Shown piece by piece: positions 6,108-54,049 of a stretch of 64,000 bases of DNA. Source of the stretch: an uncultured virus (IMG/VR IMGVR_UViG_3300037088_000381) (taxonomy: Duplodnaviria; Heunggongvirae; Uroviricota; Caudoviricetes). Each line of letters starts with the position of its first letter. The stretch's first letter is position 1. The position numbers and the translations under genes are program-made. The stretch lies in IMG/VR virus record IMGVR_UViG_3300037088_000381. One strand, given 5' to 3'. The notes beneath the pieces were generated by a model. It was not told the origin of the DNA, searched no databases, and saw only the letters and a list, made by a program, of their open reading frames with translations.

Positions 6108-6135
6108 GTTAACTCAAAAAAATATTTGAGTTAAC
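6108..6135. promoter_or_regulatory. 28-bp palindromic site, copy 3
   Basis: GTTAACTCAAA AAAATA TTTGAGTTAAC. Confidence 0.85.
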
Positions 6136-6167
6136 TTCTATATAGGGAGTAATAGAAGTAATAGTTG

Positions 6168-6195
6168 GTTAACTCAAAAAAGATTTTGAGTTAAC
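6168..6195. promoter_or_regulatory. 28-bp palindromic site, copy 4
   Basis: GTTAACTCAAA AAAGAT TTTGAGTTAAC, 60 bp after copy 3. Confidence 0.85.
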
Positions 6196-6304
6196 AGGAA
6201 TAGTGTTACAGCCGTAAAAAGTGAAAAAGTATGTCTGTCAAAAAAGTTGGGTGTGATATTAAAAATTAAACGGAGCGCCCAGAAAGTAGAAAGAGAAATA
6301 CCCT

Positions 6305-9040
6305 ATGCACAATAAACCAGTACCAGTGAAGTATCTAAGACCTAACAAGGAAGGATATTCAGTGAGGATATACCAGGCATTACCGCCTAACTACCCAAGG
6401 ACTATAGAGCCATTGGGTAAGAATGTATTGCTCTGTATGGAGCATAAGGAGCGGATGACTTACATAGCATCTATTAATGTGTGGGCATGTCCACACTGTA
6501 CTAATGGAGGTATAAACATAGCATCGGTTCCCAGGGCCTTGGCTCTGGAGCAGTGTGATATAGTTGCTTAAAGTAATAGGTAATAAGGAGGGAAGGAATA
6601 TGGCTAAGTATTTAGTTAGTGTACAGAAGTGTATGTATAGTACAGGTAAGGTTGAAGTTGAGGCGGATAATGAAGTGGATGCGATTGATGATGTACAGGA
6701 GAGGATTAATAAGGGGGAGTTACAGACGACGGGAGTTGAGTGGGGAGATATGGTGTATGAGGATTGTTCATTTGGTACGACGGGGGATGTAGACTAACCT
6801 TTATAAAGTAGGGGAGGTGTTCTATGGTAAGTGTAAGTTATGTAGAGTCACCAGTAGCGGTTAAGTTTTGTACTACGGCGATGGAGAAGAAACCTGAGAC
6901 GGATAACACACGGTTACTTGAGAAGGTCTGGAGTAAGGTTCCGTTGAGTAGGGAAGAGAAGGATAGGGTTGCTTCGATACTGTATGGGACGTTTAGTAGT
7001 CATACATCTACGTATAAGTTAATGGGATGGGCATGGGTGATGTCGTATAGTTTGAAGCGTATCCTTGTGTCGTTCACCTATGATGAGGGGGTATTTAGGA
7101 CGTTTTATGCACCAGATAAGACCTCCTTACGGAAGGTATTGAGTAGTGTAGCAGAGATGATAGAGCCTAAGCAGGAGGTTCTATGAAGTATGTAGTGATA
7201 GTTTATGGAGTATCGATGTTTGATAGTGAGGATGAGTTAGTAGCTGGGAGGTATGCTACGTTATTAAAGGAGTCAGGTTGGAAGGGTGTCTCTATAAAGG
7301 AGGAAACACTATGAGGAACATAGAGAAGTTATCGTGGGGAGATTTTATAAAGCAGTATGATGAGAGTGTTCGTAAGCAGATAGCGGAGTATAGGAATCGT
7401 CCCGGAGTGTCTGGGGTAGCGACTTTGAAGTGTGAGGTAATGGATTCGAGTAGGTTTGGAACTGAGACTGCTTTGATCTATGGGCCTGGTTGTACGTATA
7501 AGACTTTGGATGACATGGTACGTAAGCAGGGTGGAATGGGGATATACATAACGGGTTCACCATCATCGGCGTCTTTTGTGTATAATCATACGGAGGATAA
7601 GCCGTTATGAAGACAGGGCGTGGTGTAGTAGAGAAGGTTGTTAATGGTGATCTATTGGGCTACCTTGTAACGATACCTTCTGATGGGATGTATTTCTTAC
7701 GTAATGGGGATATAACGGATAAGGATGTAGGTAAGAAGGTATTGGTGGACTATGAGCCTGGTCATTTTCTTTGCACGTTTGTTTCCCGAACGGAGGGTTA
7801 ATATGAAGAGGAGTAGAGCCATAACAAAGGATAGGAAGCTAACCTTTGTCGATCAGATAATTGTTCAGGATGAGATAAAGACATTGATGAACAGTTGTGT
7901 TGAGGGTTATGATGGTACGTGGGATTGTACGACTGATGAAGGACGTGAAGGATTTAAGGCGATGTATTATGGTCTGGAGAAGATGGCGAAGCGGTTGAAG
8001 GTGGATGGTACGTTGGATGTGAAGCCTATATGAGTGGGGAAGTTAAGACGGTGCTTGAAGCTTTATCGTTTGCCCGTGACCAGATCAGGTCTGAGAATGA
8101 CCTAATGAGGACTGTAGGGTTGGTGATGTTGGATAGGATTATATTAGAATTGGGATCTGGTAAGTGTGTACGGGACAAGATTGATTTCAACACGTAGGGA
8201 GGGACGCCATGAAGAAGAGGGGAGAAGGGGTAGTAGTTAGGACTGTAGGTAGTGACATCTATGATTATGCGGTGTCGATGGATGAGGGGAACTTCCTTAT
8301 AACGAACGGGGATGAGGAAATTCGGGAAGAGGATATAGGTAAGCGTATCATCGTGAACTATGAACCTGAGTGGCCTTGTTGCCAGTTTGTATGCTTCTAC
8401 AGTGAAGATAAGAAGGAGCCAGAGGTTGACTCTTGTGATAATTGTGTTGAGAGATTAACAGGAGTAGCTGGTTCATCGTGTGATGGTTGTCCCAAGAGGA
8501 TATAAGTAATCACTTTTATCGAAAGGTATATAAGATGAAAGCAATTATTGGTTGGTGTTGTACGATTGTGGTGTTTGTGTTTGTCCTGATGTTGTTTATT
8601 GATAACAAGTACAACCACAAGATGCAGGGTCATGTGTCTCTGGCATGTAGTCAGGCGTCGAAGGAAGCTTCGATAGAGGCGACTAATGTTAAGCGGAAGT
8701 TTATTAACTTCATAGATAAGAAAAAGTAGTAATTTATTTCGGCGGGTTAATAATATATAAAGGGTACTGGATGGCCGGTATCCTTTTCATTTAACAAGGA
8801 GTGTTACCCATGCCAACAATAGTACAAGACCACAAGAAGAACTTCGAGACGTTAAAGAAAGCATTTAAGAATGGTGCTGTATGTTTGATGGATTGTGTTG
8901 AGAAGTGTAGTGGGGAACACGTAGCGGTTATATGTACTTCGATGCCTCAAGAGGATGGAGGGATGGTATTTGTTCCCTTTGCTCGATTCTTTAATGGTAA
9001 TCCATACAGTCAGTTGATACCACCAGGGGATAACACATGA
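6305..9040 (+). other. Cluster of short hypothetical CDSs (6305, ~6600, 6824, ~7311, 7607, ~7803, 8209, ~8535, ~8810)
   Basis: Tightly packed plus-strand ORFs, most with GGAG RBS; 7607..7801 and 8209..8505 are paralogs. Confidence 0.65.
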
Positions 9041-9208
9041 AGACTCTGATTAAGTTAGCGGTTTACTTTCTTTCTCGAATATTATACATCTTGTTTGGGT
9101 TACTTGCCTTGGGCATTGCCATTGTTTCATTTATATTAATTAGGTTGAAGACTCTATAGTCGTTGGCAGTATGCTTTCTGTTTAATAATTTCCCAGTAAT
9201 CTACCGTG

Positions 9209-9236
9209 GTTAACTCAAAATAAAATTTGAGTTAAC
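9209..9236. promoter_or_regulatory. 28-bp palindromic site, copy 5
   Basis: GTTAACTCAAA ATAAAA TTTGAGTTAAC, just upstream of the RBS of 9260. Confidence 0.85.
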
Positions 9237-9259
9237 CTATTTCATATAAGGAGGTCTTT

Positions 9260-12200
9260 ATGGTTCGTCGTATCCTGGATGTAGTAGAAGTTGAAACAAG
9301 GAAACCTTTCCATAGTCTTAAAGGTAATGGTACATGGAACGTATTGGAATTGTTTCCTAAGCGAGAGCTTCAGTATCTTGCAAAGATATGTAGGCTTCCC
9401 CGGTCTGGGACTCGGTCGGACATAATTAGTCGGTTATGTGTCTTTCATCAGAGTCGTTATGGTGGTTTGCGTATGAAGGTAACATTAAGATAAGGAGTAG
9501 ATATGCGGATATGTTTATTGGTTTTAATATCCTTTGTAGTAGTGTATGGAGGACAGCCTTGGTATCAGGAGTATGTAGAAGCTTCACAATCAATGATGCG
9601 GTGGTTAATGTTTCCTTGGGGGTTTTTAATTATCCTTGGGTTAGCTGTGTTGTTAATAACGAAGATCATTAAGTATGGGTATAAGATTATAGGTAGCTTC
9701 TTCAGGGATGGTATGTAATGAAACAGTATCCAAGGTTTTATGGGGACGAGAGTATTAGAACTGTGACACTCTCTGGAAGTTCTAAGGATCGACGTAAGCA
9801 ACTAAGGAAGTTATGCAAGGACAATCCAGACTGCAAGGTCACACTTCATGCTCCTATAGTTATGAAGACTCTTAATGGTGAGAGGGTTGAATGTGATGAG
9901 GCCAATGTAGTGAGGACTCAGGTACGGATAACGAAAGAAATAAGGAATGATAAGGAGGAGAATGATATATAACACTGTTCATATAAATCCTACAAAGGTA
10001 TCAAAGCATAAGGAATCGTGGGAGGTTAGTATAGATAAGAGCAACAAAATGGATCGAGAGGACACTAAAACCTTACCAAATCCTTTAGGGTTCTACCATT
10101 ACCCAGAGGCTATGAGTGAGCGAGAAGCTACTGAGACTCTTATAAAGGTTATGGTTGGTAGGCATGAAGAGGAGATAGCCAGGCTTACTGTATCTAAAAA
10201 TGCCTTATTACTTTTATTAAGCGAGGTAATTAATGATAAGGAGGGTTAGATGAATGTAGTAAATGCTGATAGAAGTAACAACGTGGAAATTGTTCCAGAG
10301 AAATGGCCTGGGTATTCTATAGAAAAGAAGTCTAGGTTTCTGCCTCCTCTAAGTTCTTTGCTTGAGAGGATTGCCAAGCACTCTGGACGTGGTGAGTATG
10401 CTGAAAATCTTAAGAGGGGTATCCATAGGAAGTTTAAGTACCTATTAGATGAATGTCTCTGCAATGACTCTATAGCGAGTATGTGTGATGATGAGGGTAA
10501 GCCAAGTATGGATAAAGCTTTTGTTATTCTTGGTAAGGCTTACATACGGTTAAACGTAATCGACGAGATCAACAAGTCAATCAATGAAGCTTTGAACAGT
10601 ATCTATGTAACACATTGGAGCAAGGAGCTCTGGGATCTAAGGCAGGTCTGCATCGAGCAGAAGAGACTTGCTGAGGAGTTGGTTCGATCCATATACTATC
10701 ATAAGGAGAAAGAGAATGAGAAATCAATTCCAGAAGTTAGTGTCCCAGGGTGAGGATGCCCGTGATAAGTTAAGGGAAGCAATCAATAACCTTCCCGAGA
10801 CGTCTGGGGTAACTAAGTTGGGTAATAACTGTGTGACTGTACCTCTGAGTCTCCTAAGTGGGCATAACAATTGGAGTCCTTCTTATTGGATCTCTAAGGA
10901 AACGAAGCAGTTGCTTTTGAATGTAGTTGATTCCAAGAGGCCCGTGGACGGGTTCATTAAGGCGATGGATGAGATTATTAAGACTGGATGTGTGATAGAG
11001 CCTAAAGCAAGTTGTTACACGAGTGCTGGGCCTAAGATTCGTATTGCTCCTAATGTATTGGAGGAGTTAAAGAAGGTCTGGAATTGTTTAGGCTGTACGG
11101 ATTACGGTAAAGAGAAGTTACCTGCAAATGAGTCTCAGTGTTTAATATGTAATCGTTTTTACGGGGATAGATACAGACAATAACCTTTTAAATGGGAGAA
11201 GTAATATGAAAATTTTGAATGGTATCCTTTTAATGAGTCCACTTGTACTATGGATAATTGTTCGTTGTGTTGCGAGTTTGAATTTCAGTGTTGATTGTGG
11301 GGGTCATATAAAAAGGGCTGCTGATGCGAATACGATTGAGCTTGCAGCTCAGGAGCTTAGGACGGTGATAACTTATTGTGATGAGCATAAACTTACGTCT
11401 GGGGTGGTGTCTATAATAATAAAGCAACCGAAGAATGATGTAGGTTTTTGGTATACAAATCTTAAGGCATCGCTTACGGAGTTAGATAAGGTGACAGAAA
11501 CTACGTCACAGCTTGAGAAGACTAACATACTTATAAAATTACGGGAGACTTTGGTGGATCATGGTCAGTCTGGGATGAGTATAACTGTACCTGATGGTAT
11601 AACAATTTACCCACACAATGTAATGTATTTTTGGTGGGCAGTAATTGGGACGTTATTAGCGTGTGTCGGTGCTGGTTTAGTCTATCAACATCTTAGTGAA
11701 TGGTAGTTTGATAATCCTTACTATGGAGGTTAGGAGTAATCATGAAACACATACTCGAAGAGTTAGCCGAAGTAGCTAAGAGTAATCTCATAGAGAATGG
11801 ATACATAGCTTCGGTTATGTTTTGGTTTAAAGGCAATCAAATGATGAGGCCCATGCTCTTCAAGGACTTTGATGATTGTAATGGTGATGATATTAACACT
11901 CGGAATGCTTTTGTAGCGGGTATCATGTCGAATAAAATGGGGGCTGACTTGGTTGTGTTACTAACCGATGCAGCTTTCAGACATATCACCGATGGAAAGA
12001 TACCTTCCTCTCCAGAGGAGCAACCTTTATCCTATCCCAGATCGATGCGAACGGAATGTATAGTTATTATTGGTATCAAGGTTCCATCTGGTGAGTCTGA
12101 TGTGATGATGGTTCCTTATAAGGGTGGAGAAGGTGAGCCTGTAGAATTTATTCCTAATGAACTACCTAAAGAAGCTAAGTTTGAGACTCGGTTCTCGGAC

Positions 12201-38767: not shown

Positions 38768-39653
38768 AAATAGTTTTAGCAAGACCCTTTGATGATAACG
38801 ACATCGTAGAAGTATATGTTGTCGAACATAAAACAAAGCTTAACGACTTCCATCTTGAATGGGACAAGGCAAAGACCGCAGTAATTAAAAAGGACCCAGA
38901 GACCTGGAACATTAATCAGGTTATCAAGCTTATGGAGAAGCATGGATGGCAAATACTTCACGTCGATGATGTTGAAACTGTCCTCTACTAAGGAGCCACG
39001 ATGAATATAAGAAAAGTTGATACAGCAAAGTTACTTCAAGAAATTACCGACACGATGTGCCACTGGGAAGGTGAAGACATTGCCGAAAAAGCCCAAGAGG
39101 TACTCGGTCATCCAGTAGAATATCTCGGTGATGATATATATGAAGTCAAGGAGGACTAATGAAAGAAGACCTTGAACAGATGAAGCGCCCACCATGAAGG
39201 AGCTGAGGAAGTTATCAACTCCATTACCGAAGTTCTTAGACGAGCAAGTCCCCAAACAATTGAAGAGGTAGCCAAGGTTGCCGGCCTTAACGGCATCAAG
39301 TATGCAGGTGGACTTATGTTTGAAGTGGAGGAATTTTAAATGGAAAACAAACCAGATGGTTACTTTCAAAAAAAGAAAGACACCATTAAAGAAAGAATTG
39401 CAGAGCTTATAAGTCATGGCATGGACTCGTATGATATTGATAAAGACATATCTCCCTGCACAACTAAAACATTAGTAAGTATAATAACAGACTACATGGA
39501 AGCTGATCTGGAAAGTCATTGGAAGGAAGCCAATGGCCTCTTGGAAAAAGTTGCCAACAGTTATGAAGATACAGGATGTGATGATTGTGGCACCGTATCG
39601 AAAGAAGTTATCAATGAGATCCGATTGTTTCTCGGGTGGAAGGAAGTTTAAAC

Positions 39654-40160
39654 ATGCCCAGAATAAAATTCCGAGAAGGCTCCTCTCGATCTACAGGATA
39701 CTTCTACTGTCCTAAGTGTAAGAGAGAGTGGAGTGCCATGCTGTCCGAACCTGAAGTACCAGAAGAATGTCCCGATTGCAAATCAACAAAAGGAAACATT
39801 ATGAAAAAAGTAACCCCTCAAGCATATAACATTGGCAAGAACCCCTACGTCTTTAAATGCTTAGACATATCAATGGGGCACATAACCAAAAAGGATGCCG
39901 AGCTTCTTATAATAGATGACTCACATCCTGTTGCCCACGAAAAGTACCATAACAATCCCGTGGTCTCCTACGAATTTGAATACGGCTTCTTTGTTTTCGT
40001 CCCTGAAAATGATGAGGGCTATTCCAAAGACGCTCTCAAGTTCGGATACTCCAAAGCATTCGTAGAGGTCATGGACAAGGCCAGGAAACTTAAATGCAAG
40101 TTCATCCAGTTTGATGGTGACGGCATTGAGTATGATGACCTTCCAACCTTTAAATGGTAG
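39654..40160 (+). CDS. Zn-ribbon plus DUF5983-like protein
   Basis: LDIS.GHIT..D...YGFFV...AR...C....FD.DG....LP.F.W. Confidence 0.55.
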   Translation: MPRIKFREGSSRSTGYFYCPKCKREWSAMLSEPEVPEECPDCKSTKGNIMKKVTPQAYNIGKNPYVFKCLDISMGHITKKDAELLIIDDSHPVAHEKYHNNPVVSYEFEYGFFVFVPENDEGYSKDALKFGYSKAFVEVMDKARKLKCKFIQFDGDGIEYDDLPTFKW

Positions 40161-40447: not shown

Positions 40448-42310
40448 ATGCTCTACAATGAACTCAACCTTATTAAGAAATTAATGGATGGGCCTCAATC
40501 TAAAGTTATAACCCTCCATCAATATTCTAAAGGTGCAGGGATACCTACCAACCCAAAGTTTGCCAAGACCACGGCCTGTCGCCTTATTAAAGTTATTAGG
40601 GATGAGCATGGACGATTAGCTTTCCAGTATGAAAGGCATCCAGCAGTATTGGATTCCTTTATGGATGCCTACTCACTCTTCTATAAGAACTGTCCGAGTG
40701 ATACAAAGGGTACACCTCATTATTACTTTGGAGATATATTCCTGGGAGTTAATATAAAATCCAGTAACGATCTCCTTAATAGGATCATACCTTTTTACTT
40801 TGAAGAAAAGTTTCCTTTGGTAACAGAATTCAATCAGCTTATCAGGGATGAGTTCCTTAATTTCTGGTCCTACGTAGAACAGATGTTTGACCAGATAAAT
40901 AAGAATCCTATGGCTGATGGCATGAAAGACTTGAAAAAATATACTGGTATGTTTATTCACTTTGACTTCAGCGATGTAGCCGAGAGTGAGCATTGGTATA
41001 ACCTAAAAAGTATCATTGAGTTTCTAGACTACCTTGAACTCGAAGGACTTAAAAGAAATACTAAAGGCAAAGCTGCCTTCGACTACATACCTGAAGTCTC
41101 AGGCTACTCACTTAATAAAGGCTTCTTTCATACCGTGACCTCTGGGGATGAGAAAAGCGATAACCAGTTCCCAGGATTCGACCTTACACAAAAATATAAA
41201 TCCTTTAGCCTTGCTGAAGATCAACTCCGTAGCATCTTCTATTACTCTAAAACTTTAAAGAGGTGTCAGATTGGAATACCTGATTCTGCTCCTTACTGTT
41301 TCCGATTAATTCCAGTAGGATCATATAGCACTCAAAGTGCTGTAGATTATATCGACCATATAAAGGAACTCAGAAGAGGTGTACCCGAAGATCAACTAAA
41401 CAAATTGGAAAAGTTAGAGGATCAAGTTGTAAGTGAAGATGAAGAACCAGAGGAACTCGGATCTAGTTGGGACCCAACTGAACTTATCGCACAAGCCGCA
41501 GAAAAATGTGCTAAGGAAATGATCTCCTTCGATCTTATTCTTCTAAGGCTTGGCACTAAAGGTCCAGATGTAAACGTCGGTGAAATAAATAACATGTCTC
41601 GAAGTTCTCTAAGGAAAAACTTATCAGTCATTAAAGAAAAGGTTAATCAAATAAAGGACAAAAGAAAAGCAAGGACATCAGTGACAAGAGCTTTCTTTAA
41701 TGTACACTACAAAGGAAAAAGAAAGGGAGAAGATAAATACCAAGTTAAATTTGCCCGTATGATGCTCAAGCTTTATAGAGGCTTGTACTTTGGAGACCCC
41801 GAGCTTGATAAGATATTTCTTGATAGGGTGCATAAAGATATAAGAGAGACAGGAATGAAAAATTATTACGGGCTCAAAACTTCATATAGCCTTCTTAAAC
41901 TATTATCAAATAAAGGAGATGAGATGACAAAGTCCCAAGAACTAAGTAAGAGTCTCGGGCGACACTTAGCCCAAATCATGTGGCCCCTATCTTTCGTTAT
42001 CGGACGAAGATCAAGGAGCTTTGAAAAAGCTCAGGTAGGTCAGATACGATACCGAGTAGGAACTCTTCCACAAGTAGTAAGGCTCCTGGGAGAGTATCGT
42101 GGTCGTATATCATTGCATGCAAATGAGAGCCTTGGAAAAGATACTGAAAGAGTTGTTGATGTTGGTAGAGCTGGAAGAGCTCTACACGATGCCAACAGCA
42201 CTATTGAAACCCTTGAAAAAGAAAACTGCAAGTACGATCGAGACCAGTTGGTGCTAGGGTTCTTCGATGAGTATGACTTACAATGTTACCTTGCTTCAAA
42301 ACCTAAATAA
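40448..42310 (+). CDS. cas8: Type I CRISPR large subunit (Cas8b-like)
   Basis: 620 aa immediately before cas7/cas5/cas3; NQFPGF...YKSF motif; helical C-terminus with an internal RBS. Assigned mainly by position. Confidence 0.75.
   Translation: MLYNELNLIKKLMDGPQSKVITLHQYSKGAGIPTNPKFAKTTACRLIKVIRDEHGRLAFQYERHPAVLDSFMDAYSLFYKNCPSDTKGTPHYYFGDIFLGVNIKSSNDLLNRIIPFYFEEKFPLVTEFNQLIRDEFLNFWSYVEQMFDQINKNPMADGMKDLKKYTGMFIHFDFSDVAESEHWYNLKSIIEFLDYLELEGLKRNTKGKAAFDYIPEVSGYSLNKGFFHTVTSGDEKSDNQFPGFDLTQKYKSFSLAEDQLRSIFYYSKTLKRCQIGIPDSAPYCFRLIPVGSYSTQSAVDYIDHIKELRRGVPEDQLNKLEKLEDQVVSEDEEPEELGSSWDPTELIAQAAEKCAKEMISFDLILLRLGTKGPDVNVGEINNMSRSSLRKNLSVIKEKVNQIKDKRKARTSVTRAFFNVHYKGKRKGEDKYQVKFARMMLKLYRGLYFGDPELDKIFLDRVHKDIRETGMKNYYGLKTSYSLLKLLSNKGDEMTKSQELSKSLGRHLAQIMWPLSFVIGRRSRSFEKAQVGQIRYRVGTLPQVVRLLGEYRGRISLHANESLGKDTERVVDVGRAGRALHDANSTIETLEKENCKYDRDQLVLGFFDEYDLQCYLASKPK
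41924..42310 (+). CDS. cas11: Internally translated Cas11 small subunit (predicted)
   Basis: In-frame ATG at 41924 preceded by AAAGGAG inside cas8; 128 aa. Confidence 0.65.
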   Translation: MTKSQELSKSLGRHLAQIMWPLSFVIGRRSRSFEKAQVGQIRYRVGTLPQVVRLLGEYRGRISLHANESLGKDTERVVDVGRAGRALHDANSTIETLEKENCKYDRDQLVLGFFDEYDLQCYLASKPK

Positions 42311-42341: not shown

Positions 42342-43319
42342 ATGACTAATTTAAAAGTAAGACGCTCACAGTTAATTTTTATCTATGACTCAATCTTCTG
42401 TGTACCAAACGGCGATCCCTATACAGGGGAACAACGTTATGATGAAGCCACTTCAAGACCCCTCATCTCGGATGTTCGAATCAAAAGATTTGAAAGGGAT
42501 TTCTTTTTGTTCTTAAATATGCTTGACTCAAAAAATAATTATGACATCTACATGCAAGATGTCGATAAGACTCTTTTGGAAAATGATGAAATCAAAGGAT
42601 CAGGCTCTGAAGCACGGCTTAAAATATTAGCAAAGAAGTACGGACTCCAAGCAGCAAAACCTGAAGAGGGTGCTAAGAAAGGTAAGAAGAGTCCGAAGTT
42701 CGATGTTGATACCCTAATGAAAAAGTGTATTGATGTCCGACTGTTCGGTGGTGTATCAACTGCCGAAAGTAACAACTCAAAATTTACCGGCCCAATTCAA
42801 TTCGAGAATCTGAATCCTGCTCTTAATAAATGTGAACTTCGACGACATCAAAACACAACGGTCTTTCAATCGAGCATGGAAAAAGATCAAGGCTCAATGG
42901 GCACAACCAGTCTTGTCCCTTTCTCATTGAATCAAATCATCGGATACATTAACCCTTTCCTTGCCATGAAAACGGATCTGACAGAAGCAGACATCTCATT
43001 ATTTCTGGATGCAATGTGGAAATCAATCAACATCTGCACATCCAGAAGTAAGATCGGCCAAACCTCCCGCTTGCTATTAAGGATCAACCTTGTAGATCCA
43101 ATGGCAAAGATTGCTGACCTCCATAATAAAATTCGTATCAATGAAGCAGAAAGCTTTGACCTTCGTAGCCTCTCCGACATTACCTGGGACTTCTCGGGAC
43201 TCGTAACCTTAATAGCTTCGGACAAAGTTAAGGACGTAGAGTATCGAGTTGAAGATGCACTGGCCGATATCTTTCACAATCAAACCAGCTCCGTGGCCTC
43301 GAAACTTGTAAAGTTTTAA
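42342..43319 (+). CDS. cas7: Cas7 (Csh2/Cas7b family)
   Basis: PNGDP...SDVRIKR..RD; DVRLFG; TGPIQF; SRSK.GQ..R.L. Confidence 0.92.
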   Translation: MTNLKVRRSQLIFIYDSIFCVPNGDPYTGEQRYDEATSRPLISDVRIKRFERDFFLFLNMLDSKNNYDIYMQDVDKTLLENDEIKGSGSEARLKILAKKYGLQAAKPEEGAKKGKKSPKFDVDTLMKKCIDVRLFGGVSTAESNNSKFTGPIQFENLNPALNKCELRRHQNTTVFQSSMEKDQGSMGTTSLVPFSLNQIIGYINPFLAMKTDLTEADISLFLDAMWKSINICTSRSKIGQTSRLLLRINLVDPMAKIADLHNKIRINEAESFDLRSLSDITWDFSGLVTLIASDKVKDVEYRVEDALADIFHNQTSSVASKLVKF

Positions 43320-43378: not shown

Positions 43379-44056
43379 ATGAAAGGTATTGTATTTAAAC
43401 TCACTGGGCAGTATGGGCATTTTAAGCAACCCCAAACAAACAATAACCCCTGTACCTTTGCTTACATGCATAAGGTTGCAATCATAGGGTTCCTCGGAGC
43501 CGTCACAGGGATTGAACGAGAATTGATGGCAGTTTTATATCCACAGTTATGTGAGGATTTAATTTGCTCCATTAAATTACTCACCCCGATTGTTAAAGAG
43601 CCCCATGCTTTTACAAAAAGAATAGTCATTGAAGAATTTTTCTATGGTCAAGGACGAAGGTTTTGCGAGTACCTTAAAGATCCAGGTTATGAAATCACCC
43701 TGGCACTTAAAGGTGAACGATCGAAACAACAGTTCGAAGATTTCTGTCACAACATAAAAAATGATCTGGCAGTCTACCCGACTTCTTTCGGAGTAGTTAA
43801 TTGCCCGGCATACTTCGAGTTCATTAAAGACGTAGAGGTTTCAAATGAGTTGAACGGGCCCTTTGAAACAGATTCAATCATATCAGACACTCATGTGTTA
43901 GCTGATAATGATTTTGTTTCCGAACGGGTTCCAACTAATGAACCTCAAAACATGTTACATGCTGACCATGTTCTAACGGTTTGTGTTCAAGGTACTACCG
44001 TATCAACCTCTGGCCCATACAGAAAGGTTGACGGTAAATCTGTATGGTTCATGTAA
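43379..44056 (+). CDS. cas5: Cas5 (Cas5h, I-B-like)
   Basis: VF.L.G.YGHFK.P.TN....TF......A..G.LGA..G; EYLKDP.Y; G...CPA. Confidence 0.9.
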   Translation: MKGIVFKLTGQYGHFKQPQTNNNPCTFAYMHKVAIIGFLGAVTGIERELMAVLYPQLCEDLICSIKLLTPIVKEPHAFTKRIVIEEFFYGQGRRFCEYLKDPGYEITLALKGERSKQQFEDFCHNIKNDLAVYPTSFGVVNCPAYFEFIKDVEVSNELNGPFETDSIISDTHVLADNDFVSERVPTNEPQNMLHADHVLTVCVQGTTVSTSGPYRKVDGKSVWFM

Positions 44057-44072
44057 AAGGAAAGAGGTAAAC

Positions 44073-46622
44073 ATGATGGTATCTAAATACGTTAAAGAAC
44101 TTAAGTCCCATCCCCGTAAGACTCTTATCTGTCACATTACAGGGGTTCAGGATTGGGGTCTTAGGATCTATGATGATTACAGAGTTAGAACCTCTGCACT
44201 CTTTCACGATGTAGCTAAGATAACAAAAAACTTTCAAGATAAATTAGCTGGCAAAGATGTGAAAGATCTTTATACCAATCATGCTTACCTCTCTTTTTAT
44301 ACCATGCTTAACTATGTAGCTCAGCATGGATTCAAACCAGGCATAATCGAAAACAAAAAAGATCTTATCCTTATAGGAGCTTGTATCCTTAAACACCATG
44401 GAGGACTACCTAACCTTCATGAGATCATTAACGTAGAAGAATGGGATAGGATGAAAGCCTTCCTTGCAACAAACCCCTATCTTCCAACCGATGAGTTTAT
44501 GAATGCCGTTAAGTTAGAAAAAGAAGATATACATTTCTCTTTAAAGGACATAGCCCTATCCAGAATACACAGCGGCCAAAAAGCTTTATTCTCCCCAATA
44601 GGTTTAAGAAAAGCAATAGCCGATCCCCAGGCCCCAGGGATTAATGAACTTCAATTCTTTATAGACTTGAGATTATGTTTCTCAGCAATCGTTGCAGCTG
44701 ATAAAGGGGATGCAGGTAATCAAAAGATCTCAGATGATACTTATAAAGAAATGTCTAAGGTATACCAATCCAGAATTTGTACATACTTAAATGGCTTTAA
44801 CAATAAAACTATAACAGACTTAAACAAAGTCCGTACTGAAATCAGAACGACTTGTGTTAATAACCTATGTAGCACAATGAAAACTAATCCTGGGCAGCAT
44901 GTCTTCTCCCTTACCGAACCTACCGGGTCAGGTAAGACTGCGATCCTTCTTACTCTGGCGAATGAGATAATGAAAGAGAAGAAGGTAAACAAATGTGTAT
45001 ACAGCATTCCTTTCTTATCTATAACCGAGCAAGTATATGGGATCATAGAAGGTATCTTTGATAAGGAACAAGGATGTATTAAAAGAATGGATTGTAAAGC
45101 CCAGCCTGAGTTCGATGCCTCCGAGATTGGTGAGAACTATGGCGAAGAGAACATGCTTAAGAAATTAATGTCTGCCTTACGAAAGGCTCTTAAAGGTCAA
45201 ACAATAAGAGAGGAAGCCGTTGAGGATGTTCTAAGAACGGATTACTTAGAGTCTACTTTTAATTACCCACTTATCGTAACAACGTTTGTTCAGTTCTTTC
45301 AATCATTCACTACATCAACTAACAAAGGCTTGATGAGGTTTGCTTCTCTTCAAAATTCTGTGTTCTTAATTGATGAGATTCAAGCAATGCCTTCAAGGTT
45401 ATATTCATTCTTTGTGGCTCTGCTTGATGAGTTCTGCCGTAAGTGTAATAGCTATGCTATCATATCTACAGCAACAATGCCATGCTTTAAAATTCCTATC
45501 AATGCTCCAGAAGCTAAGTTGATGTTTAAAAATTATCAGATTCCAATTGAGATAGGGGATCTAAATCATTTCGCTTATGATGTCTTCAACCGTTATGAGC
45601 TTCATGTGGATAAGGGTTCAATTGATATAGATGAGTTAGTTCTTCGAGTAAGAAAAGAAACTGAAGCAACCCTTGTTGTTCTTAACACCGTTAATGATTC
45701 TCGTGAAGTGTATGATAAACTTAAAGTCTCTGTAGACTGTCCTGTAAAATTAATGAACTCAAACTTTCATGCCCAAGACCGCAGAGTTATACTTAAACAA
45801 TGTCAGGATATGTTAGATGCTGGAACAAAATTTTTCTTTGTCACGACCCAGTTAATTGAAGCTGGTGTAGACATAGACTTTCCGATAGTCTATCGAGACA
45901 TCGCTCCACTACCTAATCTTATTCAAACGGCAGGGCGCTGTAATAGAGAAGGGCGCTTAAGGTATACAGACGGGAGTCGACGACGGGGTATCGTACATAT
46001 CTTTATGCTCAAGGATGAATCTCAACCAGTACTAAGAGCTCAGTATATTTATAATGGTCTTGATGCTCCTTTTCTTGATTATGCCATTCGTGTTTTGGTT
46101 AACGTTCCTCAAGTAATCTTTGAAGAAAAAAATCTTCTCAAACTTCAACAGGATTACTTTACTTACATGGCTCAGTCTCTAAAATTCGGGGCCTGGGAAA
46201 AGAGTTATGAAAGATGTAACTTCATTCAGCAGATACAAAATTTTAGGTTCAAAGATATTGGAGCATACACAGTCATACCTGCAACGGCATACGGAGCCCA
46301 GGAAAGATTTTATGTTCCAATAGATGAGCATGATAGATCATTCGAAAAGTTATATGAGTTAATGGCCGAAAAAGAAAACATAGATCAAGCAGGAAACCAA
46401 AACAATAAAGATAATCTTAGGGAGATAATTTTTAGGGGCACACAACTACATGTTCATCTAAAGAAAATGATGGATAGAGTTGTGCAGGTAAATATTAAAG
46501 AGGAAGAAGTTAAGAACTTAGTTGAGTATGAAGCAGCAACCTGTTATATGTATAAACTAAAACCTGGATATTATACTCAGGGTCCTGAAGGGCATAGTGA
46601 GTATGGATTCCAAAAGGAGTGA
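44073..46622 (+). CDS. cas3: Cas3 HD nuclease/SF2 helicase
   Basis: FHDVAK and HHG (HD domain); PTGSGKT, IDEIQ, STAT, TQLIEAGVDIDF, QTAGRCNR. Confidence 0.95.
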   Translation: MMVSKYVKELKSHPRKTLICHITGVQDWGLRIYDDYRVRTSALFHDVAKITKNFQDKLAGKDVKDLYTNHAYLSFYTMLNYVAQHGFKPGIIENKKDLILIGACILKHHGGLPNLHEIINVEEWDRMKAFLATNPYLPTDEFMNAVKLEKEDIHFSLKDIALSRIHSGQKALFSPIGLRKAIADPQAPGINELQFFIDLRLCFSAIVAADKGDAGNQKISDDTYKEMSKVYQSRICTYLNGFNNKTITDLNKVRTEIRTTCVNNLCSTMKTNPGQHVFSLTEPTGSGKTAILLTLANEIMKEKKVNKCVYSIPFLSITEQVYGIIEGIFDKEQGCIKRMDCKAQPEFDASEIGENYGEENMLKKLMSALRKALKGQTIREEAVEDVLRTDYLESTFNYPLIVTTFVQFFQSFTTSTNKGLMRFASLQNSVFLIDEIQAMPSRLYSFFVALLDEFCRKCNSYAIISTATMPCFKIPINAPEAKLMFKNYQIPIEIGDLNHFAYDVFNRYELHVDKGSIDIDELVLRVRKETEATLVVLNTVNDSREVYDKLKVSVDCPVKLMNSNFHAQDRRVILKQCQDMLDAGTKFFFVTTQLIEAGVDIDFPIVYRDIAPLPNLIQTAGRCNREGRLRYTDGSRRRGIVHIFMLKDESQPVLRAQYIYNGLDAPFLDYAIRVLVNVPQVIFEEKNLLKLQQDYFTYMAQSLKFGAWEKSYERCNFIQQIQNFRFKDIGAYTVIPATAYGAQERFYVPIDEHDRSFEKLYELMAEKENIDQAGNQNNKDNLREIIFRGTQLHVHLKKMMDRVVQVNIKEEEVKNLVEYEAATCYMYKLKPGYYTQGPEGHSEYGFQKE

Positions 46623-47170
46623 CAATGTATAAGTTTATTACCAATCAAATTAAATTCAGTAGTGAAGACGGGCACATACGGCATCAAGAAATCCAGAAAC
46701 ACTTTCCTTATGGAAGTGATGTTCGATTCCGTGCTTATCCAGATAAGGTTATCATATGCAGTTCCAATCTTCCCGTTACTGGAATCTCTTGTGATATGGT
46801 TGTTCTACAACCGTATAATATAGGAGACCAGTTGAAGTTTAATATATTAGCCAATGCTACCTACACTGTGAATGATAACATCCTCCCTGTCCTGGGGATT
46901 AAAAACCTTGTAGGATGGTTTCAAGACCAGGCATCAAAGCACGGCTTTGATATTAAAGCATGGGAGAAAATAATTTCCCTGGGGTTTGTAAAAGCAACTA
47001 AAGAAGATCAGATAAGGACTCATAACTCGGTTGAGTTCCAAGGGAAGTTAAAAGTTATGGATGCCAATAAGTTTAATAAGACTATCGGAAGTATAAAGTC
47101 AGATCATTATGGGATAGGTCGAGCTAAGTATTGTGGCTTCGGTATCCTGGAGGTAGACAATGTATCTTGA
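46619..47170 (+). CDS. cas6e: Cas6e (I-E type), short
   Basis: GDQLKF...AN.T; WF...A..HGF; V.FQG.L.V.D...F; GIGRAKYCGFGIL Gly-rich loop. Confidence 0.85.
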   Translation: MTMYKFITNQIKFSSEDGHIRHQEIQKHFPYGSDVRFRAYPDKVIICSSNLPVTGISCDMVVLQPYNIGDQLKFNILANATYTVNDNILPVLGIKNLVGWFQDQASKHGFDIKAWEKIISLGFVKATKEDQIRTHNSVEFQGKLKVMDANKFNKTIGSIKSDHYGIGRAKYCGFGILEVDNVS

Positions 47171-48005
47171 TCTCGAGTGTAAACTACCGCATGCTTACAT
47201 GGAAATGGGAAGACTCTGTGTGAAAGGGGCTTCCCTTCACTATGTAAATGAAACAACAGACATAGTTATTCCTGTGGGAAGAATTGAAAGTTTATTTATT
47301 GGCCCAGGAGCTACTATAACACATAGTGCAATTAAATTATGTTCATGGGCTAATTGTACAGTGGTATGGGTAGGAGAAGACATATCAAAATGTTATGCTG
47401 TATCTTCCTGTAACTCAAGATCATCGAAGAATTTAATAAAACAAATTTATTTATACGAGCATAAGAAGTCTCTTCTAATTAAACGTTATTGTATGAAGAG
47501 ATTTGGAAGAAAAGTTTTCTTGGGTAAAATAGATGAAGATAAAATAAGAGGGCTAGAAGGCAGCTATATGAAAAAGATTTATATAGAGTGTGCGAAAAAA
47601 TACGGTATCCCTTGGAATGGGAGAGTTAAGCACGGAGAATGGGATAAGCAGACTTTATATAACAAGTCTATTTCAATATGTAACTCTTATCTATATGGGA
47701 TATGTTGTGCTGTCCTCAATACTTTAGGGTACTCTACAGCTCTCGGATTGTTACATAAAGGAGACATGTTATCTCTAGTTTTTGATATTGCAGATCTTTA
47801 TAAAATAAATTTCTCTCTTCCTTTAGGTTTTGAAATAGCTTGTGATTATAAGGATAAAAAAATTCCAGATCAAGAAGTAGAAAAAGAATTAAGGCACAGA
47901 ACCTTACAAAAGTTTCAAGACTGTAAACTTCTAACACTTATCTTAACAGACTTAGAAGATATTTTTAATGATAGCAATATGTGTAGTGAAAAACATAACG
48001 AATAA
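47160..48005 (+). CDS. cas1: Cas1, I-E type
   Basis: IPVG....L.IGPGATITH.A; VWVGE; RGLEG; YG..W.GR; LGY...LG..H.G...S.VFDIADLYK. Confidence 0.93.
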   Translation: MYLDLECKLPHAYMEMGRLCVKGASLHYVNETTDIVIPVGRIESLFIGPGATITHSAIKLCSWANCTVVWVGEDISKCYAVSSCNSRSSKNLIKQIYLYEHKKSLLIKRYCMKRFGRKVFLGKIDEDKIRGLEGSYMKKIYIECAKKYGIPWNGRVKHGEWDKQTLYNKSISICNSYLYGICCAVLNTLGYSTALGLLHKGDMLSLVFDIADLYKINFSLPLGFEIACDYKDKKIPDQEVEKELRHRTLQKFQDCKLLTLILTDLEDIFNDSNMCSEKHNE

Positions 48006-48240
48006 AACAAAACTTATCTTGGCAGCATATCTATATGAAATACAAGTTAATGTTTTTGTTGGTACAATTAATTTTAAACTATCTGAAGAAATTTTAGTTT
48101 ACCTTAAAGAAAAAACAAAAGGTCGAGAACAATCTGTTTTCATAAAGGAGTGTAAGAAAACATATGAAGGATTTGACGTTCAATATATTAACTGTCCAAA
48201 AAGATATATTGATTTTGACGGGCTAAAATTTTTTAAATGA
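47968..48240 (+). CDS. cas2: Cas2, I-E type
   Basis: L..YL.E....VFVG; EGF.......R..DFDGL. Confidence 0.88.
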   Translation: MIAICVVKNITNKTKLILAAYLYEIQVNVFVGTINFKLSEEILVYLKEKTKGREQSVFIKECKKTYEGFDVQYINCPKRYIDFDGLKFFK

Positions 48241-48277
48241 CTTAAGTATTTAATATCACTTGTTTTAAGTGCTTAGG

Positions 48278-49895
48278 GTCTTCCCCGCTTATGCGGGGAT
48301 TGAATAAAGACAGCCTTCCAATTTTAGCTGTTCTTTAATGTCTTCCCCGCTTATGCGGGGATTGAATATCGATAGGTAAAACTGCAGTATCTTGATCTAG
48401 TCTTCCCCGCTTATGCGGGGATTGAATATAAGGCACCTCCATAATAATGTGATTTTTGTGTCTTCCCCGCTTATGCGGGGATTGAATAATCGATCTGTTG
48501 TCGATAGGCTTATATCGTTTGTCTTCCCCGCTTATGCGGGGATTGAATGGAAGAGGGAGGAGACGACATCGAGACTTATTTGTCTTCCCCGCTTATGCGG
48601 GGATTGAATTGGTTCCTTATCCCTGTTGCATAGAGAAGCTCAGTCTTCCCCGCTTATGCGGGGATTGAATAGACGGGGAAGGAGGGTACTTATTTGACAA
48701 GTCGTCTTCCCCGCTTATGCGGGGATTGAATAATGGTATCAGGAACAGGATATCGTTTAGAGACTATGTCTTCCCCGCTTATGCGGGGATTGAATTCTAC
48801 TTTTAATCTCATTAACCAAATCCAGAAGTCTTCCCCGCTTATGCGGGGATTGAATTTTAGCGTAATGACCAGCCCAGATCAGAGAACAGTCTTCCCCGCT
48901 TATGCGGGGATTGAATCTATAGGCAGGTGGCCTTGTCCGCCTCTCCTGCTGTCTTCCCCGCTTATGCGGGGATTGAATTCAACTACTCGGAAATGCGGCA
49001 TTAGGAAAATTGTCTTCCCCGCTTATGCGGGGATTGAATAAACCGCATAAGGAAGATCATCAAATAAAGCCTGTCTTCCCCGCTTATGCGGGGATTGAAT
49101 AGGGATTGAATATAAACGGCTCGATGAAATCTATGTAGTTCATGTCTTCCCCGCTTATGCGGGGATTGAATGGCGTGTGAGGTGCTAAATCAATCTGCAT
49201 AATGTCTTCCCCGCTTATGCGGGGATTGAATTGCTCGCAATGCCTTGAGATTGTCAATCATCCGTCTTCCCCGCTTATGCGGGGATTGAATATTTCTTTT
49301 ATCATTTCGGATAAGGGGTAATGTCTTCCCCGCTTATGCGGGGATTGAATCTATAGGCAGGTGGCCTTGTCCGCCTCTCCTGCGTCTTCCCCGCTTATGC
49401 GGGGATTGAATTCGATCGTGATCGTCAAGCTTGTTTTCTATCAGTCTTCCCCGCTTATGCGGGGATTGAATAGTTGTGTCCAAGTAAGAGCTAACTGGGT
49501 GTCTGTCTTCCCCGCTTATGCGGGGATTGAATTGTATAAATGTCCTCCTGCATTATTTCTAAACCGTCTTTCCCGCTTATAAGCGGGATTGAATAATCGG
49601 CTTTAGAAATGTCCGCGATGGTTCAGGAGTCTTCCCCATAAGCGGGGATTGAATGCATGATTTACATCGCATTATCACATCGTAGCCGTATTCCCCATAG
49701 TGGGATTGAATATTTAGGGCTGAATCAAAATGCCCATACCCATTATCTTCCCTATGTAAATGGGATTGAATTTCAAGAAGTGAGTCAATGTCTTGCTGAA
49801 CGTTACTATCTTCCTATCAATAACGGGATTGAATTTTAAAAGGTTTATTGTCTGACTTAAGATCGATGGCTTCCCATTAAGTTATGGGATTGAAC
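48278..49895 (+). CRISPR. CRISPR array with 27 repeats (21 identical 28-bp GTCTTCCCCGCTTATGCGGGGATTGAAT plus 6 degenerate distal repeats) and 26 spacers, mostly 32-33 bp
   Basis: Read directly from the sequence; degeneration at the cas-distal end fixes the orientation. Confidence 0.98.
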
Positions 49896-49970
49896 CTGCT
49901 TTTACCAAGAATGAAAAGAAACTTTATTATTCCCTAAAGCTATAGGGCTAATCATTAACAAGGAGTCAAT

Positions 49971-51462: not shown

Positions 51463-53153
51463 ATGAATTCAAGAATTGACGATCTGGTTAACAAGGCCTT
51501 ATCAGACCTTGATCGGTTCTACTCTAACTACGGAGAGTACAAACCGAAGTCTTCCCCTAAGTTAGATAAGCCAGAAAAAGTGGCACATAAAAAAGCCTGC
51601 TTCTGCCAATTCCCTGGATGCTATAAAAAAACCGAACCTAAAAAAACTTTCTGCTCCCAACACATTCTCGAAAACAAATTCAATAAGCAGGAAGCCATAA
51701 AGAGTACACCAAAGATAATATACAGACCAGCAATCTTACCCGACTCCGAACCACCTCAACCAGTTCCTCCTCCCCCTAAAGAATTATCAATTAATATCAA
51801 AGGCTTAAGCTCACGTAAGATCATCGATCTCGTAAAGAAAGAAACAGGTGAACTCATTACCATCTGTGTTAAAAGTAAAAAGAATGTTATTCGACATGCC
51901 AAGATAATCCTGCAGAAGAAGGGATACACCTTACATGAGTAAAAACAAGATCGTAATTAAAGATGAAAAGGTAATCGGCCTACGTGGACCCCTGGCCGAT
52001 ATGTGTATCATAGTAAAAGATAAACAAGACGTCGAGTGGTTCTCCAAAATGAATCCTGACCAATTCAAAATGCAGAAGGATGATTACGGAGTCCAAGTCT
52101 ACGACCATGAAGGTAAACCAGCAAAGAAGTATCTCAAAGGCTTCTTAAAGTATGTCTCCGAGTTCACTCTCAAGCTTAACGACCAAGAGATACCAGTTAC
52201 CACAGTAAAGAAAATAACTCTACCAAAAGTATCTTCCTCTTTCTTCCCAGATGATATCCCTGATGAAGAAGAGATTGTAGATCTTATCCCCGAACCAATC
52301 GAAGTCAATGCCGATGATGAGTCACCAGACGAGCCCGAGATTGCAGGAGACGTTAACGCTCCCGATGATCCCGAACTTCCTGAACCTAAAATTGATGAGG
52401 AATCTCAACACTACCATGCCTAAGTTGAAACACAGAGTGTGAGTTGAAATATTAATCTTTTAAGGAGTGTGTATACCATGGCCAGTACAGTAACAAACTT
52501 CTGGATACAGCCCGACCCTAAGAACTTACCCCTTACAACTAAAGAAGTTTCCTTCGGATACACCGACAGCAAAGGAAACAAAAAAGAATATAAAGTTACC
52601 CGTAAAAATAAATTGTATGCCTTTCATGCTTTCATTCATGGTATAATGATAGCTAAGAAAAAGAATCTTCTCCCCTGGACAATGAGTGCTATAAGAGCAG
52701 TTAAGGATGAAGTGACTATAGTAAACCTTAAAGATGATGCAGTCCAAATGGAAATGGATCTTCAAGTAACAGCTCACAGCGTTATTGAAAGATTCCAAGA
52801 GAAGCTTCCCTGGGAACAATAGAGAGGAGACTCGTATGGGAGTCCAAGGCCGAGACCTAGGTCATCACGAATATAGATTCTACACTGGCCCAGATTACCT
52901 AGGCAAGAGTAAGTACATAGGTAAGTCTCCCTGTAGGAAGTCTATAAAGAAGTTAACTCCTAAAGCAGTTCTTGATCGAGCTGAATTATGCCAGGCTTAT
53001 TACTGGAAGAAATGTATCCTGGTAGATGGCCAAGATCACATACTGGATAGGATGTCGTTCAATAAAGCACACACTGGTTACTTTAGAAGTATAATAAACC
53101 AGATAACAATAAGCCCTAAGAATATTCTTGGGCCAAGAGAGATAGAGTGTTAG
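51463..53153 (+). other. Hypothetical CDSs (51463, 51935 with acidic tail, 52469, ~52816)
   Basis: Contiguous ORFs with RBS. Confidence 0.6.
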
Positions 53154-54049
53154 TCGAGAACCTTAGGGCCTACTTGAATCTTTGAAAGTTCTTTAACGTT
53201 TTTCTTCGACTCAGATAATTCTTGTTCAGGCTTTCGCATAACATCTTTAAAGTCTCGAATGGTTTGATTCATAGGACGAGGATCGAAATGAGTAGCCTGA
53301 TTAAAGAAGGCTTGTAAAGGTTCGAGTATAGTTAATTGAAATGGTTCCCTGTTGGATGGAGCATAACCTTTAACAATCTCTTTAAGTTTTTTATATGTAG
53401 CCTTTATATCTTCAGGCTTTAAATTAGACTTGTCCAGTATCTCTCTAACTATTATAGACTTAAGGTGGCTGCTACTTGGTAGTACACCCTGTGCTTTATT
53501 AAGGTACTCTTTTAGATTACTCACACTCAACAATGCTACAACGTCTCTAAGGTGAGAGGCTAATGAAACTCTCATCACTGGCTTACTCATAATATCCTCG
53601 AATTCTTTTTTGGTCGTTTCAAAATCCTTATGAAGAATACCTATACCACCCATCTTCTTCCAAGGGTCTAGGTTCTTTAGCATATCATCTATTAAGATAG
53701 AGTCTCTCTCTGCATAGTAAAACTTATCATCCTCAAAGAAGACAGGAGTACCAGGCAGGTTCTTATCGATCCATTGTATCTTACCACTCTGAGCATAGGG
53801 AAACTTACCCGGGGAACTTAATAGGGTAGGCTTGTAAGGCTTGAAGTATTCCCATAGGGCTTCCCCATCGGGCATCCACTGCATGTCCGCCCAGAAGGGT
53901 TCCCCTGCTTTGTTCATGGCATCCCACATTACTTGTTTCTGTTCGTGGGTAGCATTCTCTGCGAGACCCTGCTCGGCGTCTGGGCCTAAAGCTTTAACAG
54001 CTCCACAGAAATCTGTGATAACGGAATCCATATCAATGTATAATTTCAT
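53150..54049 (-). CDS. HAD-family 5'(3')-deoxyribonucleotidase-like protein with C-terminal extension
   Basis: LYIDMDSVITDF; LSSP; K..W; ILIDD...N...W...GG.GI.H. Confidence 0.85.
   Translation of the reverse strand: MKLYIDMDSVITDFCGAVKALGPDAEQGLAENATHEQKQVMWDAMNKAGEPFWADMQWMPDGEALWEYFKPYKPTLLSSPGKFPYAQSGKIQWIDKNLPGTPVFFEDDKFYYAERDSILIDDMLKNLDPWKKMGGIGILHKDFETTKKEFEDIMSKPVMRVSLASHLRDVVALLSVSNLKEYLNKAQGVLPSSSHLKSIIVREILDKSNLKPEDIKATYKKLKEIVKGYAPSNREPFQLTILEPLQAFFNQATHFDPRPMNQTIRDFKDVMRKPEQELSESKKNVKELSKIQVGPKVLD

Follow-up and report, generated by a model that had tools for sequence, protein, structure and literature searches.

In the type I-E systems, the transcript of a CRISPR array is cut at nucleotide (nt) 21 of the repeat, and this holds for repeats of 28 nt as well as of 29 nt, as described in passages of PMC3890593. 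According to the same passages, the E. coli repeat is 29 (28) nt long with a spacer of 32 (33) nt, and in S. thermophilus the 28-nt I-E repeat gives a CRISPR RNA (crRNA) in which a 33-nt spacer stands between a 7-nt 5' handle and a 21-nt 3' handle. Sections of PMC7038947 report that the central semi-palindromic motifs of I-E repeats are the anchors for Cas1-Cas2e, that type IV-A3 took over its Cas6 from I-E, and that the repeats of type IV systems are similar to those of the subtype with which they are partnered. In this study, we analysed 64,000 nt of DNA from an uncultured virus of the Caudoviricetes (IMG/VR record IMGVR_UViG_3300037088_000381), hereafter called the window, which harbors seven cas genes and, directly behind them on the same strand, a CRISPR array (48278..49532, + strand). 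Its repeat joins an I-E-like hairpin with an I-B/I-C-like tail. We consider it likely that this repeat serves as the scaffold for the crRNAs of a natural type I system, in which I-B-type interference is combined with an I-E-type processing and adaptation module by the mechanism proposed below.

With I-E, as represented by E. coli K-12 and CRISPR4 of S. thermophilus, the locus shares a repeat of 28-29 nt that begins with a 5-nt flank and forms a tetraloop on a CCCCGC/GCGGGG stem (nt 6-11 and 16-21), units of 60-61 nt in I-E, the genes for Cas6e, Cas1e and Cas2e, and an expected cut after nt 21 that leaves a 21-nt 3' handle. However, the tail is ATTGAAT in the window, while I-E tails read ATAAACC(G), ATGAACC(G) or GTGATCC. 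The window also lacks Cse1, Cse2, Cas7e and Cas5e, its effector genes being of the I-B type, and its Cas6e is compact with 183 amino acids (aa). The I-B loci of Haloarcula hispanica pHH126 and Deferribacter pDF308 carry Cas8b, Cas7b, Cas5b and Cas3 in the same order as the window, and their repeats end in (A/G)TTGAA(A/G)C, close to ATTGAAT. They are unlike the window in that the repeats compared have 30 nt (30 or 37 nt in a section of PMC3479195) without a 6-bp G/C stem, the tag has 8 nt, Cas6b, encoded upstream, does the processing, and the adaptation genes are Cas4-Cas1b-Cas2; moreover, the identity of the Cas7 proteins is just 25-28%. In the I-C system of B. halodurans, a G/C hairpin is likewise followed by ...GGATTGAAAT, and I-C Cas7 is the second-best match of the window Cas7, but the I-C repeat has 32 nt, there is no Cas6, and the adaptation module is different. 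In type I-C, processing is carried out by Cas5, which leaves a longer tag.

The repeat and its array

The array holds 21 identical copies of a 28-nt repeat, the first of which lies at 48278..48305 (+ strand), whereas 0 copies were expected from 100 shuffles of the window. The repeats start 59-64 nt apart, with the single exception of a 71-nt unit, and the 20 spacers have 31-36 nt, most of them 32-33. Folded as RNA, the repeat forms a stem of seven pairs (U5-A22 and six G/C pairs) closed by the 4-nt loop UUAU, with an energy of -15.1 kcal/mol (z = -4.27) that was equalled by 1 of 200 shuffles. An earlier note on this DNA had divided the repeat into GTCTT, CCCCGC, TTAT, GCGGGG and, after the stem, ATTGAAT; the repeat sequence and the fold agree with this division into a 5-nt flank, a 6+1-bp stem, the loop and a 7-nt tail. 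A comparison with Rfam gave no CRISPR-repeat family and only matches at the level of chance.

Downstream of the array, seven progressively decayed repeat copies were found (49566..49954, + strand). The stem drifts in these trailer copies, and the tail is kept in six of the seven, as GGGATTGAAT in five and as GGGATTGAAC, with a final C, in one; it is lost in the seventh. Because the decayed copies at the far end mark the old end of the array, the leader is the 37 nt adjoining cas2 and the + strand is the sense strand. In this short leader (48241..48277, + strand), which extends from the cas2 stop codon to the first repeat, a consensus scan for promoters and terminators gave no usable signal and no convincing promoter. 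An array that functions is expected to have identical repeats, unique spacers, decay at its distal end and spacers matching mobile elements, and the array here shows all of these.

The 71-nt unit (49073-49143) is accounted for by a partial repeat copy at 49101..49111 (+ strand), which consists of A and GGGATTGAAT, the last 10 nt of the repeat, and precedes a true 32-nt spacer at 49112-49143. The contig with the matching protospacer begins to agree at 49112, where the true spacer starts. The unit looks like the result of a deletion of most of one spacer together with the first 18 nt of the next repeat. One spacer is present twice, at 48917-48950 (34 nt) and 49351-49383 (33 nt), the extra base being leader-distal, and in a contig matching this duplicated spacer, the agreement extends into the first 4 bases of the repeat and ends there.

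The earlier note had compared the 5' part of the repeat with I-E repeats and the ATTGAA tail with those of I-B, and the alignments bear out both comparisons. The alignment set comprised seven I-E-type repeats picked up in a genome scan, in which one genome from each of 185,579 species was searched with the stem followed by ATTGAA; the label I-E refers to their repeats and to Cas6e family matches, anywhere in the genome, in three of the five genomes searched. Columns 1-23 align with these repeats without gaps, with no variation at C6-C9, C11, G16 and G18-G21, and pairing in the proposed helix is possible in 98.8% of 84 cells. Of nucleotides 1-21, 17 are shared with the I-E repeat of Salinisphaera, among them 16 of the 17 outside the loop, and 15 with the E. 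coli repeat as given in a passage of PMC3890593, where all 12 stem positions are the same.

The identities of the tail were counted by eye over 7 positions. The tail agrees at six of them with AUUGAAAC, the I-B tag in M. maripaludis and C. thermocellum, as found in a section of PMC3479195, and also with the end of the B. halodurans I-C repeat, and at five with the repeat ends in the I-B systems of Haloarcula hispanica and Deferribacter. In contrast, three positions agree with the I-E tails of E. coli and Salinisphaera and one with that of S. thermophilus. The repeat therefore has the length, the stem at nt 6-11 and 16-21 and the 4-nt loop of an I-E repeat (with one compensated pair in the related locus described below), but not a 3' tail of the AT(A/G)AACC(G) kind.

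The cas operon and its relatives

The seven open reading frames (ORFs) directly upstream of the array lie on the same strand, are all open and form one operon. The first encodes a Cas8b-like large subunit of 620 aa (40448..42310, + strand), which was recognised by PADLOC as Cas8b1 (E 2.4e-28); it had no Pfam or NCBIfam family at E <= 0.01 and no match among the PDB sequences. It is followed by a Cas7 of the I-B (Csh2) type (42342..43319, + strand) that matched PF05107 (E 2e-40) and TIGR02590 Csh2 (E 8.7e-43). The PADLOC Cas7b models (E 5.4e-44) outscored the Cas7c models, I-B/Csh2 being best and I-C second, and the nearest PDB sequence was 7xz3 of the Csh2 family (1.1e-23), then I-C Cas7, with no I-E Cas7 among the matches. 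The Cas5 of the I-B type (43379..44056, + strand) matched PADLOC Cas5b (E 4.7e-25) and TIGR02592 Cas5h (E 3.5e-15), the Cas5b/Cas5h models ranking best, and found no match among the PDB sequences. Cas3, an HD nuclease with a helicase (43983..46622, + strand), scored above the cut-offs of TIGR01587 and TIGR01596 and matched PADLOC Cas3b (E 3.8e-118); its listed GTG start overlaps cas5, and the true start may lie further downstream.

The back of the operon is of the I-E type. A compact Cas6e of 183 aa (46619..47170, + strand), the predicted pre-crRNA endonuclease, was identified by PF08798 (E 1.2e-11), by PADLOC and by its fold, while its match to TIGR01907 (E 6e-9) was below the NCBIfam cut-off. 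The AlphaFold2 (AF2) model built with 28 relatives had a predicted local distance difference test (pLDDT) score of 95.6, and its best Foldseek matches were Cse3 of T. thermophilus and CasE of E. coli (TMq 0.77-0.82, E ~1e-11), as against a TMq of only 0.35-0.45 for Cas6b structures. His20 is nearly invariant across the 28 relatives, and the Cas6e profile matched PDB sequences weakly, in the G-rich loop only. Cas1e (47160..48005, + strand) scored 222.1 bits with TIGR03638, above the cut-off of 215.6, and reached only E 1e-5 with the Cas1b model. Cas2e (47968..48240, + strand) scored 34.4 bits with TIGR01873, above the cut-off of 33.15. No Cas4, Cas6b, Cse1 (Cas8e), Cse2 (Cas11e), Cas7e or Cas5e family, and no separate small-subunit gene, was found among the operon ORFs with Pfam, NCBIfam and PADLOC.

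These assignments confirm that the hybrid of I-B and I-E named in the earlier note is real, with Cas8b, Cas7b, Cas5b and Cas3 followed by Cas6e, Cas1e and Cas2e. The operon resembles an I-B operon, such as that of Haloarcula hispanica pHH126, at its front and an I-E operon at its back, which includes the array. Cas1e is ~36% identical to a plasmid-borne Cas1e, and Cas6e is ~33% identical, over 60% of its length, to a Vibrio Cas6e. Cas7 is 25-28% identical to annotated Csh2. The deep divergence of both halves excludes a recent swap, and judged from these sequences, the join is old.

A metagenome scan confirmed one relative of Cas6e among 295 pattern matches. Its locus (L097), on a contig of 442 kb, repeats the gene order of the window for all seven genes, with identities to the window of 63% for Cas8b, 79% for Cas7, 72% for Cas5, 69% for Cas3, 60% for Cas6e, 70% for Cas1 and 47% for Cas2. 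Its array consists of 31 identical 28-nt repeats with spacers of 32-34 nt. The repeat differs from that of the window at 5 of 28 positions, of which three fall in the loop (three of its four bases) and two change the pair G10-C17 to A10-U17, and the older trailer copies of L097 retain G-C at this pair. All 12 positions of the flanks GTCTT and ATTGAAT are identical in both loci. While the stem drifts in the L097 trailer as well, ATTGAAT is found in four of its five copies and GTTGAAT in the fifth. Between the leaders (in L097, the cas2 ORF ends at 11631 and the first repeat starts at 11683), no evident similarity was seen when the two were compared by eye.

Relatives of Cas6e are few in a word-indexed search, which gave three proteins at E <= 0.001 among 26 candidates. 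With a Cas6e profile, 335 proteins were obtained at E <= 0.001, of which 28 remain at 1e-10 and 6 at 1e-30, and about 20 of the matches are compact and match over the full length. The 10 clusters of Cas6e relatives that were looked up are all metagenomic, each on 1-5 contigs. Two of 11 Cas5 relatives have longest contigs of 28,571 and 7,736 bp, the same sizes as for two Cas6e relatives (P0005/P0160 and P0004/P0165, respectively). It suggests that the Cas5 and Cas6e halves stand together on those contigs too, and the hybrid system probably has more members. No Cas6e relative was found in viral contigs by searches with alignment A1, P0014 and P0005, and a megablast of the locus against phages and plasmids gave no match.

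Processing of the repeat and the origin of its tail

The earlier note had raised the point whether this repeat is common in canonical I-E or I-B loci. In the genome scan, it was not found there, as no canonical I-E or I-B array carries the ATTGAA tail throughout. The scan gave 93 loci with the stem and ATTGAA, 12 of which have a second similar copy within 3 kb. Seven of the 12 are I-E-type arrays with the motif in one copy only, namely the last copy found in six and an internal one in L017; two are arrays with 65-67-nt periods (L045, L085), and two are not arrays. The recurrence of this I-B-like ATTGAA(A/C/G) end, replacing the array's own tail, in the last copy only (L012, L021, L023, L056, L061, L076) was set aside, as it was probably selected by the search pattern. 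In the viral contigs, the first repeat pattern gave 0 loci and the second two single matches; a looser third pattern gave at least 120 stretches, and all 80 listed are single matches with no related array among them.

The remaining locus, in Duganella vulcania, is the sole array of the genome scan with the tail throughout. This degenerate array adjoins csf1, csf2, csf3, a type IV-A1 cas6 and dinG (L095 12200-18725), and its repeats have 28 nt in the I-E register and an ATTGAAG tail, the same layout as in the window. Type IV-A also offers a precedent for module exchange in the Cas6e of IV-A3, which comes from I-E according to a section of PMC7038947. On the other hand, type IV is unlike the window in having Csf1-3 and DinG and no Cas3, and the Duganella genome gave no Cas1 match and no match to the window Cas6e. 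ATTGAA behind a G/C hairpin is not unique to the hybrid, since it occurs in this type IV-A1 array and in I-C repeats.

The earlier note had also regarded a 7-nt handle as unusual for I-E and had asked whether the terminal T of the repeat derives from the protospacer adjacent motif (PAM). The first view is corrected by the S. thermophilus I-E crRNA described in the passages of PMC3890593 cited above, and with that layout in mind, the window layout is the ordinary 28-nt I-E form and not a shortened I-B tag. As for the second, five long peat contigs match a spacer and then diverge, and their 5' flanks are TAC, CCA, GAC, GGT and CCC. T stands at -1 in 0 of the 5 flanks, which indicates that the terminal T is part of the repeat itself. 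The first spacer base behind the repeat is A 10, T 6, G 2 and C 2 in the window (n=20) and T 13, A 7, C 5 and G 5 in L097 (n=30); being so variable, it does not provide a fixed eighth base of the tag.

The spacer at 49472..49504 (+ strand) has an exact 33/33 protospacer in a tailed-phage contig. It is one of the five protospacers and was recovered independently in an IMG/VR contig, with the same flanks. This phage record (G002) encodes terminase, portal, major head and tape-measure proteins, was estimated by CheckV to be 25% complete, and is matched by one spacer only. In this record, an ORF of 264 aa directly follows the tape-measure-like gene, and the protospacer (15285-15317 of L226 in G002) is found close to the start of this ORF, on the strand opposite to the coding one. 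In contigs of four peat runs, different spacers adjoin the same repeat as in the window. When all 50 spacers were compared by blast with the window and the fetched loci, only short chance matches were obtained, and the search of the array against phages and plasmids in the distant mode gave only matches of E >= 0.1.

We propose the following course for the crRNA of this system. Cas1e-Cas2e would duplicate the 28-bp repeat and insert spacers of 32-34 bp. As in I-E, Cas6e would cleave the transcript at the foot of the hairpin on its 3' side, behind G21, and the resulting crRNA would start with the 7-nt 5' tag AUUGAAU, followed by the guide and by a 3' hairpin of 21 nt to which Cas6e stays bound. 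Cas5b, with Cas8b, would hold the 5' tag and Cas7b would line the guide, while Cas8b would read the PAM and Cas3 would degrade the target. The contacts between Cas6e and Cas7 are largely mediated by RNA. We infer the cut site and the 7-nt tag by analogy with I-E. As proposed here, the repeat looks composite because its hairpin would be constrained by Cas6e and Cas1e-Cas2e and its tail by the I-B-type subunits, and it is a reasonable inference from the sequence that the repeat evolved to satisfy both halves. We give an even chance to the wider view that the locus represents a distinct type I variant, possibly to be named I-B/E, which is carried in peat and comparable habitats by huge phages or extrachromosomal elements of ~430-590 kb. 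Such a variant would have an I-B-type Cascade with Cas6e as the hairpin-binding subunit and adaptation by Cas1e-Cas2e, and its repeat would be shaped by Cas6e and the integrase at nt 1-21 and by Cas5b/Cas8b at nt 22-28.

Several points weigh against the reading of the repeat as the scaffold of such a hybrid. The score of Cas7 with TIGR02590 is 146.8 bits, below the curated cut-off of 171.55, and its identity to annotated Csh2 is only 25-28%. Cas5 scores below the curated cut-off of TIGR02592, and its AF2 model (pLDDT 71) matches the Cas5 folds of I-A, I-C and I-E, so that the subtypes are not separated. The covariation of the stem is thin, as there is one compensatory pair in one sequence, equalled by 52 of 500 column shuffles. 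By simple arithmetic, five differences would miss the 7 tail positions with a chance of ~0.21 and all 12 flank positions with one of ~0.04. The I-B tag has 8 nt and ends in C, whereas here the repeat supplies 7 nt and, of the 50 spacers, 7 begin with C. The five protospacer flanks give no PAM consensus, and 0 of the 12 listed runs are recorded as RNA. Finally, the hairpin with ATTGAA(G) in a IV-A1 array means that this design need not have arisen in the hybrid.

This last point leads to an explanation that we regard as unlikely but as the most serious of the alternatives, in which the repeat is no recombination chimera with later re-adaptation. Here, a G/C hairpin followed by (A/G)UUGAA would be an old and widespread class 1 layout that was kept in this locus, and the I-E tails would be derived. 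The Duganella array with its ATTGAAG tail, the B. halodurans I-C repeat ending in hairpin-GTGGATTGAAAT, the same layout in the two arrays with 65-67-nt periods (L045, L085) and the ancient divergence of both operon halves are all in line with it. However, positions 1-21 and the 28-nt length are in the exact I-E register, and Cas1e and Cas2e pass the I-E cut-offs. The gene order also corresponds to the 3' end of an I-E operon (cas6e-cas1e-cas2e-array) behind cas8b-cas7-cas5-cas3, while in the I-B comparison locus cas6 stands in front and cas4-cas1b-cas2 behind. An ancestral tail would in any case alter the history of the repeat and not the mechanism.

It is improbable that the mature tag has 8 nt or more, either because Cas6e cuts one base earlier in the stem or because Cas5b does the processing as in I-C (~11 nt left) and Cas6e only binds the hairpin. 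The 8-nt tags of I-B, described in a section of PMC3479195, and the place of I-C as second closest to the window Cas7 by sequence would fit such a longer tag, but a well-modelled Cas6e with a nearly invariant His20 is present, and the I-E cut falls at nt 21 for either repeat length in the passages of PMC3890593. Still less probable, to a degree that we hardly consider it, is that the locus is a decaying or inactive remnant with a tail that drifts without function. Such a remnant might show the seven decayed trailer repeats, the internal partial repeat, and the lack of a detected Cas4 and separate small-subunit gene. Yet all seven cas ORFs are open, the repeats are identical within the arrays (21 in the window, 31 in L097), the spacer content varies between samples, one spacer matches a phage exactly, and the tail is the same in two loci whose proteins are 21-53% different. 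We retain the repeat as the likely scaffold of a hybrid of I-B-type interference and I-E-type processing and adaptation.

The host element and the meaning of the hybrid

The very large, phage- or plasmid-like element that carries this system may be a huge phage, a plasmid or another giant element. Proteins identical to those of the window were found on contigs up to 429-474 kb, and in eight peat metagenome runs, over half of the words sampled from the window DNA were present. When ORFs nested in a longer + strand ORF are left aside, almost every window ORF of at least 100 aa is on the + strand; a deoxyribonucleotidase-like ORF at 53150-54049 is the clearest exception. The matches in PHROGs include RtcB, a DNA ligase, ATPases and an FtsK-like protein, and no capsid gene was found within the window with this database. 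L097 has several flanking genes in common with the window, with 33-55% identity and in a different order. Just upstream of the cas operon, a protein with a zinc ribbon and DUF5983 is encoded at 39636-40160, and a 36%-identical relative stands downstream of the array in L097 (18137-18496).

Other features of the window were observed at a distance from the cas genes. Two type-P5 twister ribozymes at 1515-1575 and 2158-2229, both on the + strand (48 and 46.7 bits; gathering score 37.6), exactly bracket a 213-aa ORF at 1516-2157, as if this segment were cut from a longer transcript. Positions 1-201 form a perfect tandem repeat with a 74-nt unit, 2.7 copies and 100% matches, which runs off the start of the window. 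The region 6000-10000 has a strong positive GC skew (0.28-0.42) and short + ORFs only, none of at least 100 aa between 7610 and 9947, and no tRNA or Rfam family was found in it.

A full-text literature search found no description of an I-B effector with Cas6e, Cas1e and Cas2e, although supplementary tables may list such loci. In the 2025 classification paper (PMC12669027), a term search gave 0 occurrences of 'Cas6e' and no such hybrid in the passages retrieved, and term searches of PMC10910872 and PMC3150331 likewise gave no match. The exchange of adaptation modules between CRISPR subtypes is already known, as is the borrowing of Cas6e by IV-A3 together with I-E-like repeats. The new step here is that the processing enzyme and the integrase of one type I subtype would serve the interference complex of another, and the repeat would show which of its bases answer to which partner. 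The long-assumed division of labour in the repeat, with the hairpin for Cas6 and the integrase and the tag for Cas5, becomes testable with four proteins and a 28-nt RNA. With its location on a very large element and its tailed-phage target, the system is a further case of CRISPR-Cas that giant mobile elements carry or use. The locus may also serve as a natural template for engineering hybrid Cascades. If our reading is true, crRNA handles are naturally modular, and Cascades could be rewired by combining the tag of one subtype with a hairpin grafted from another.

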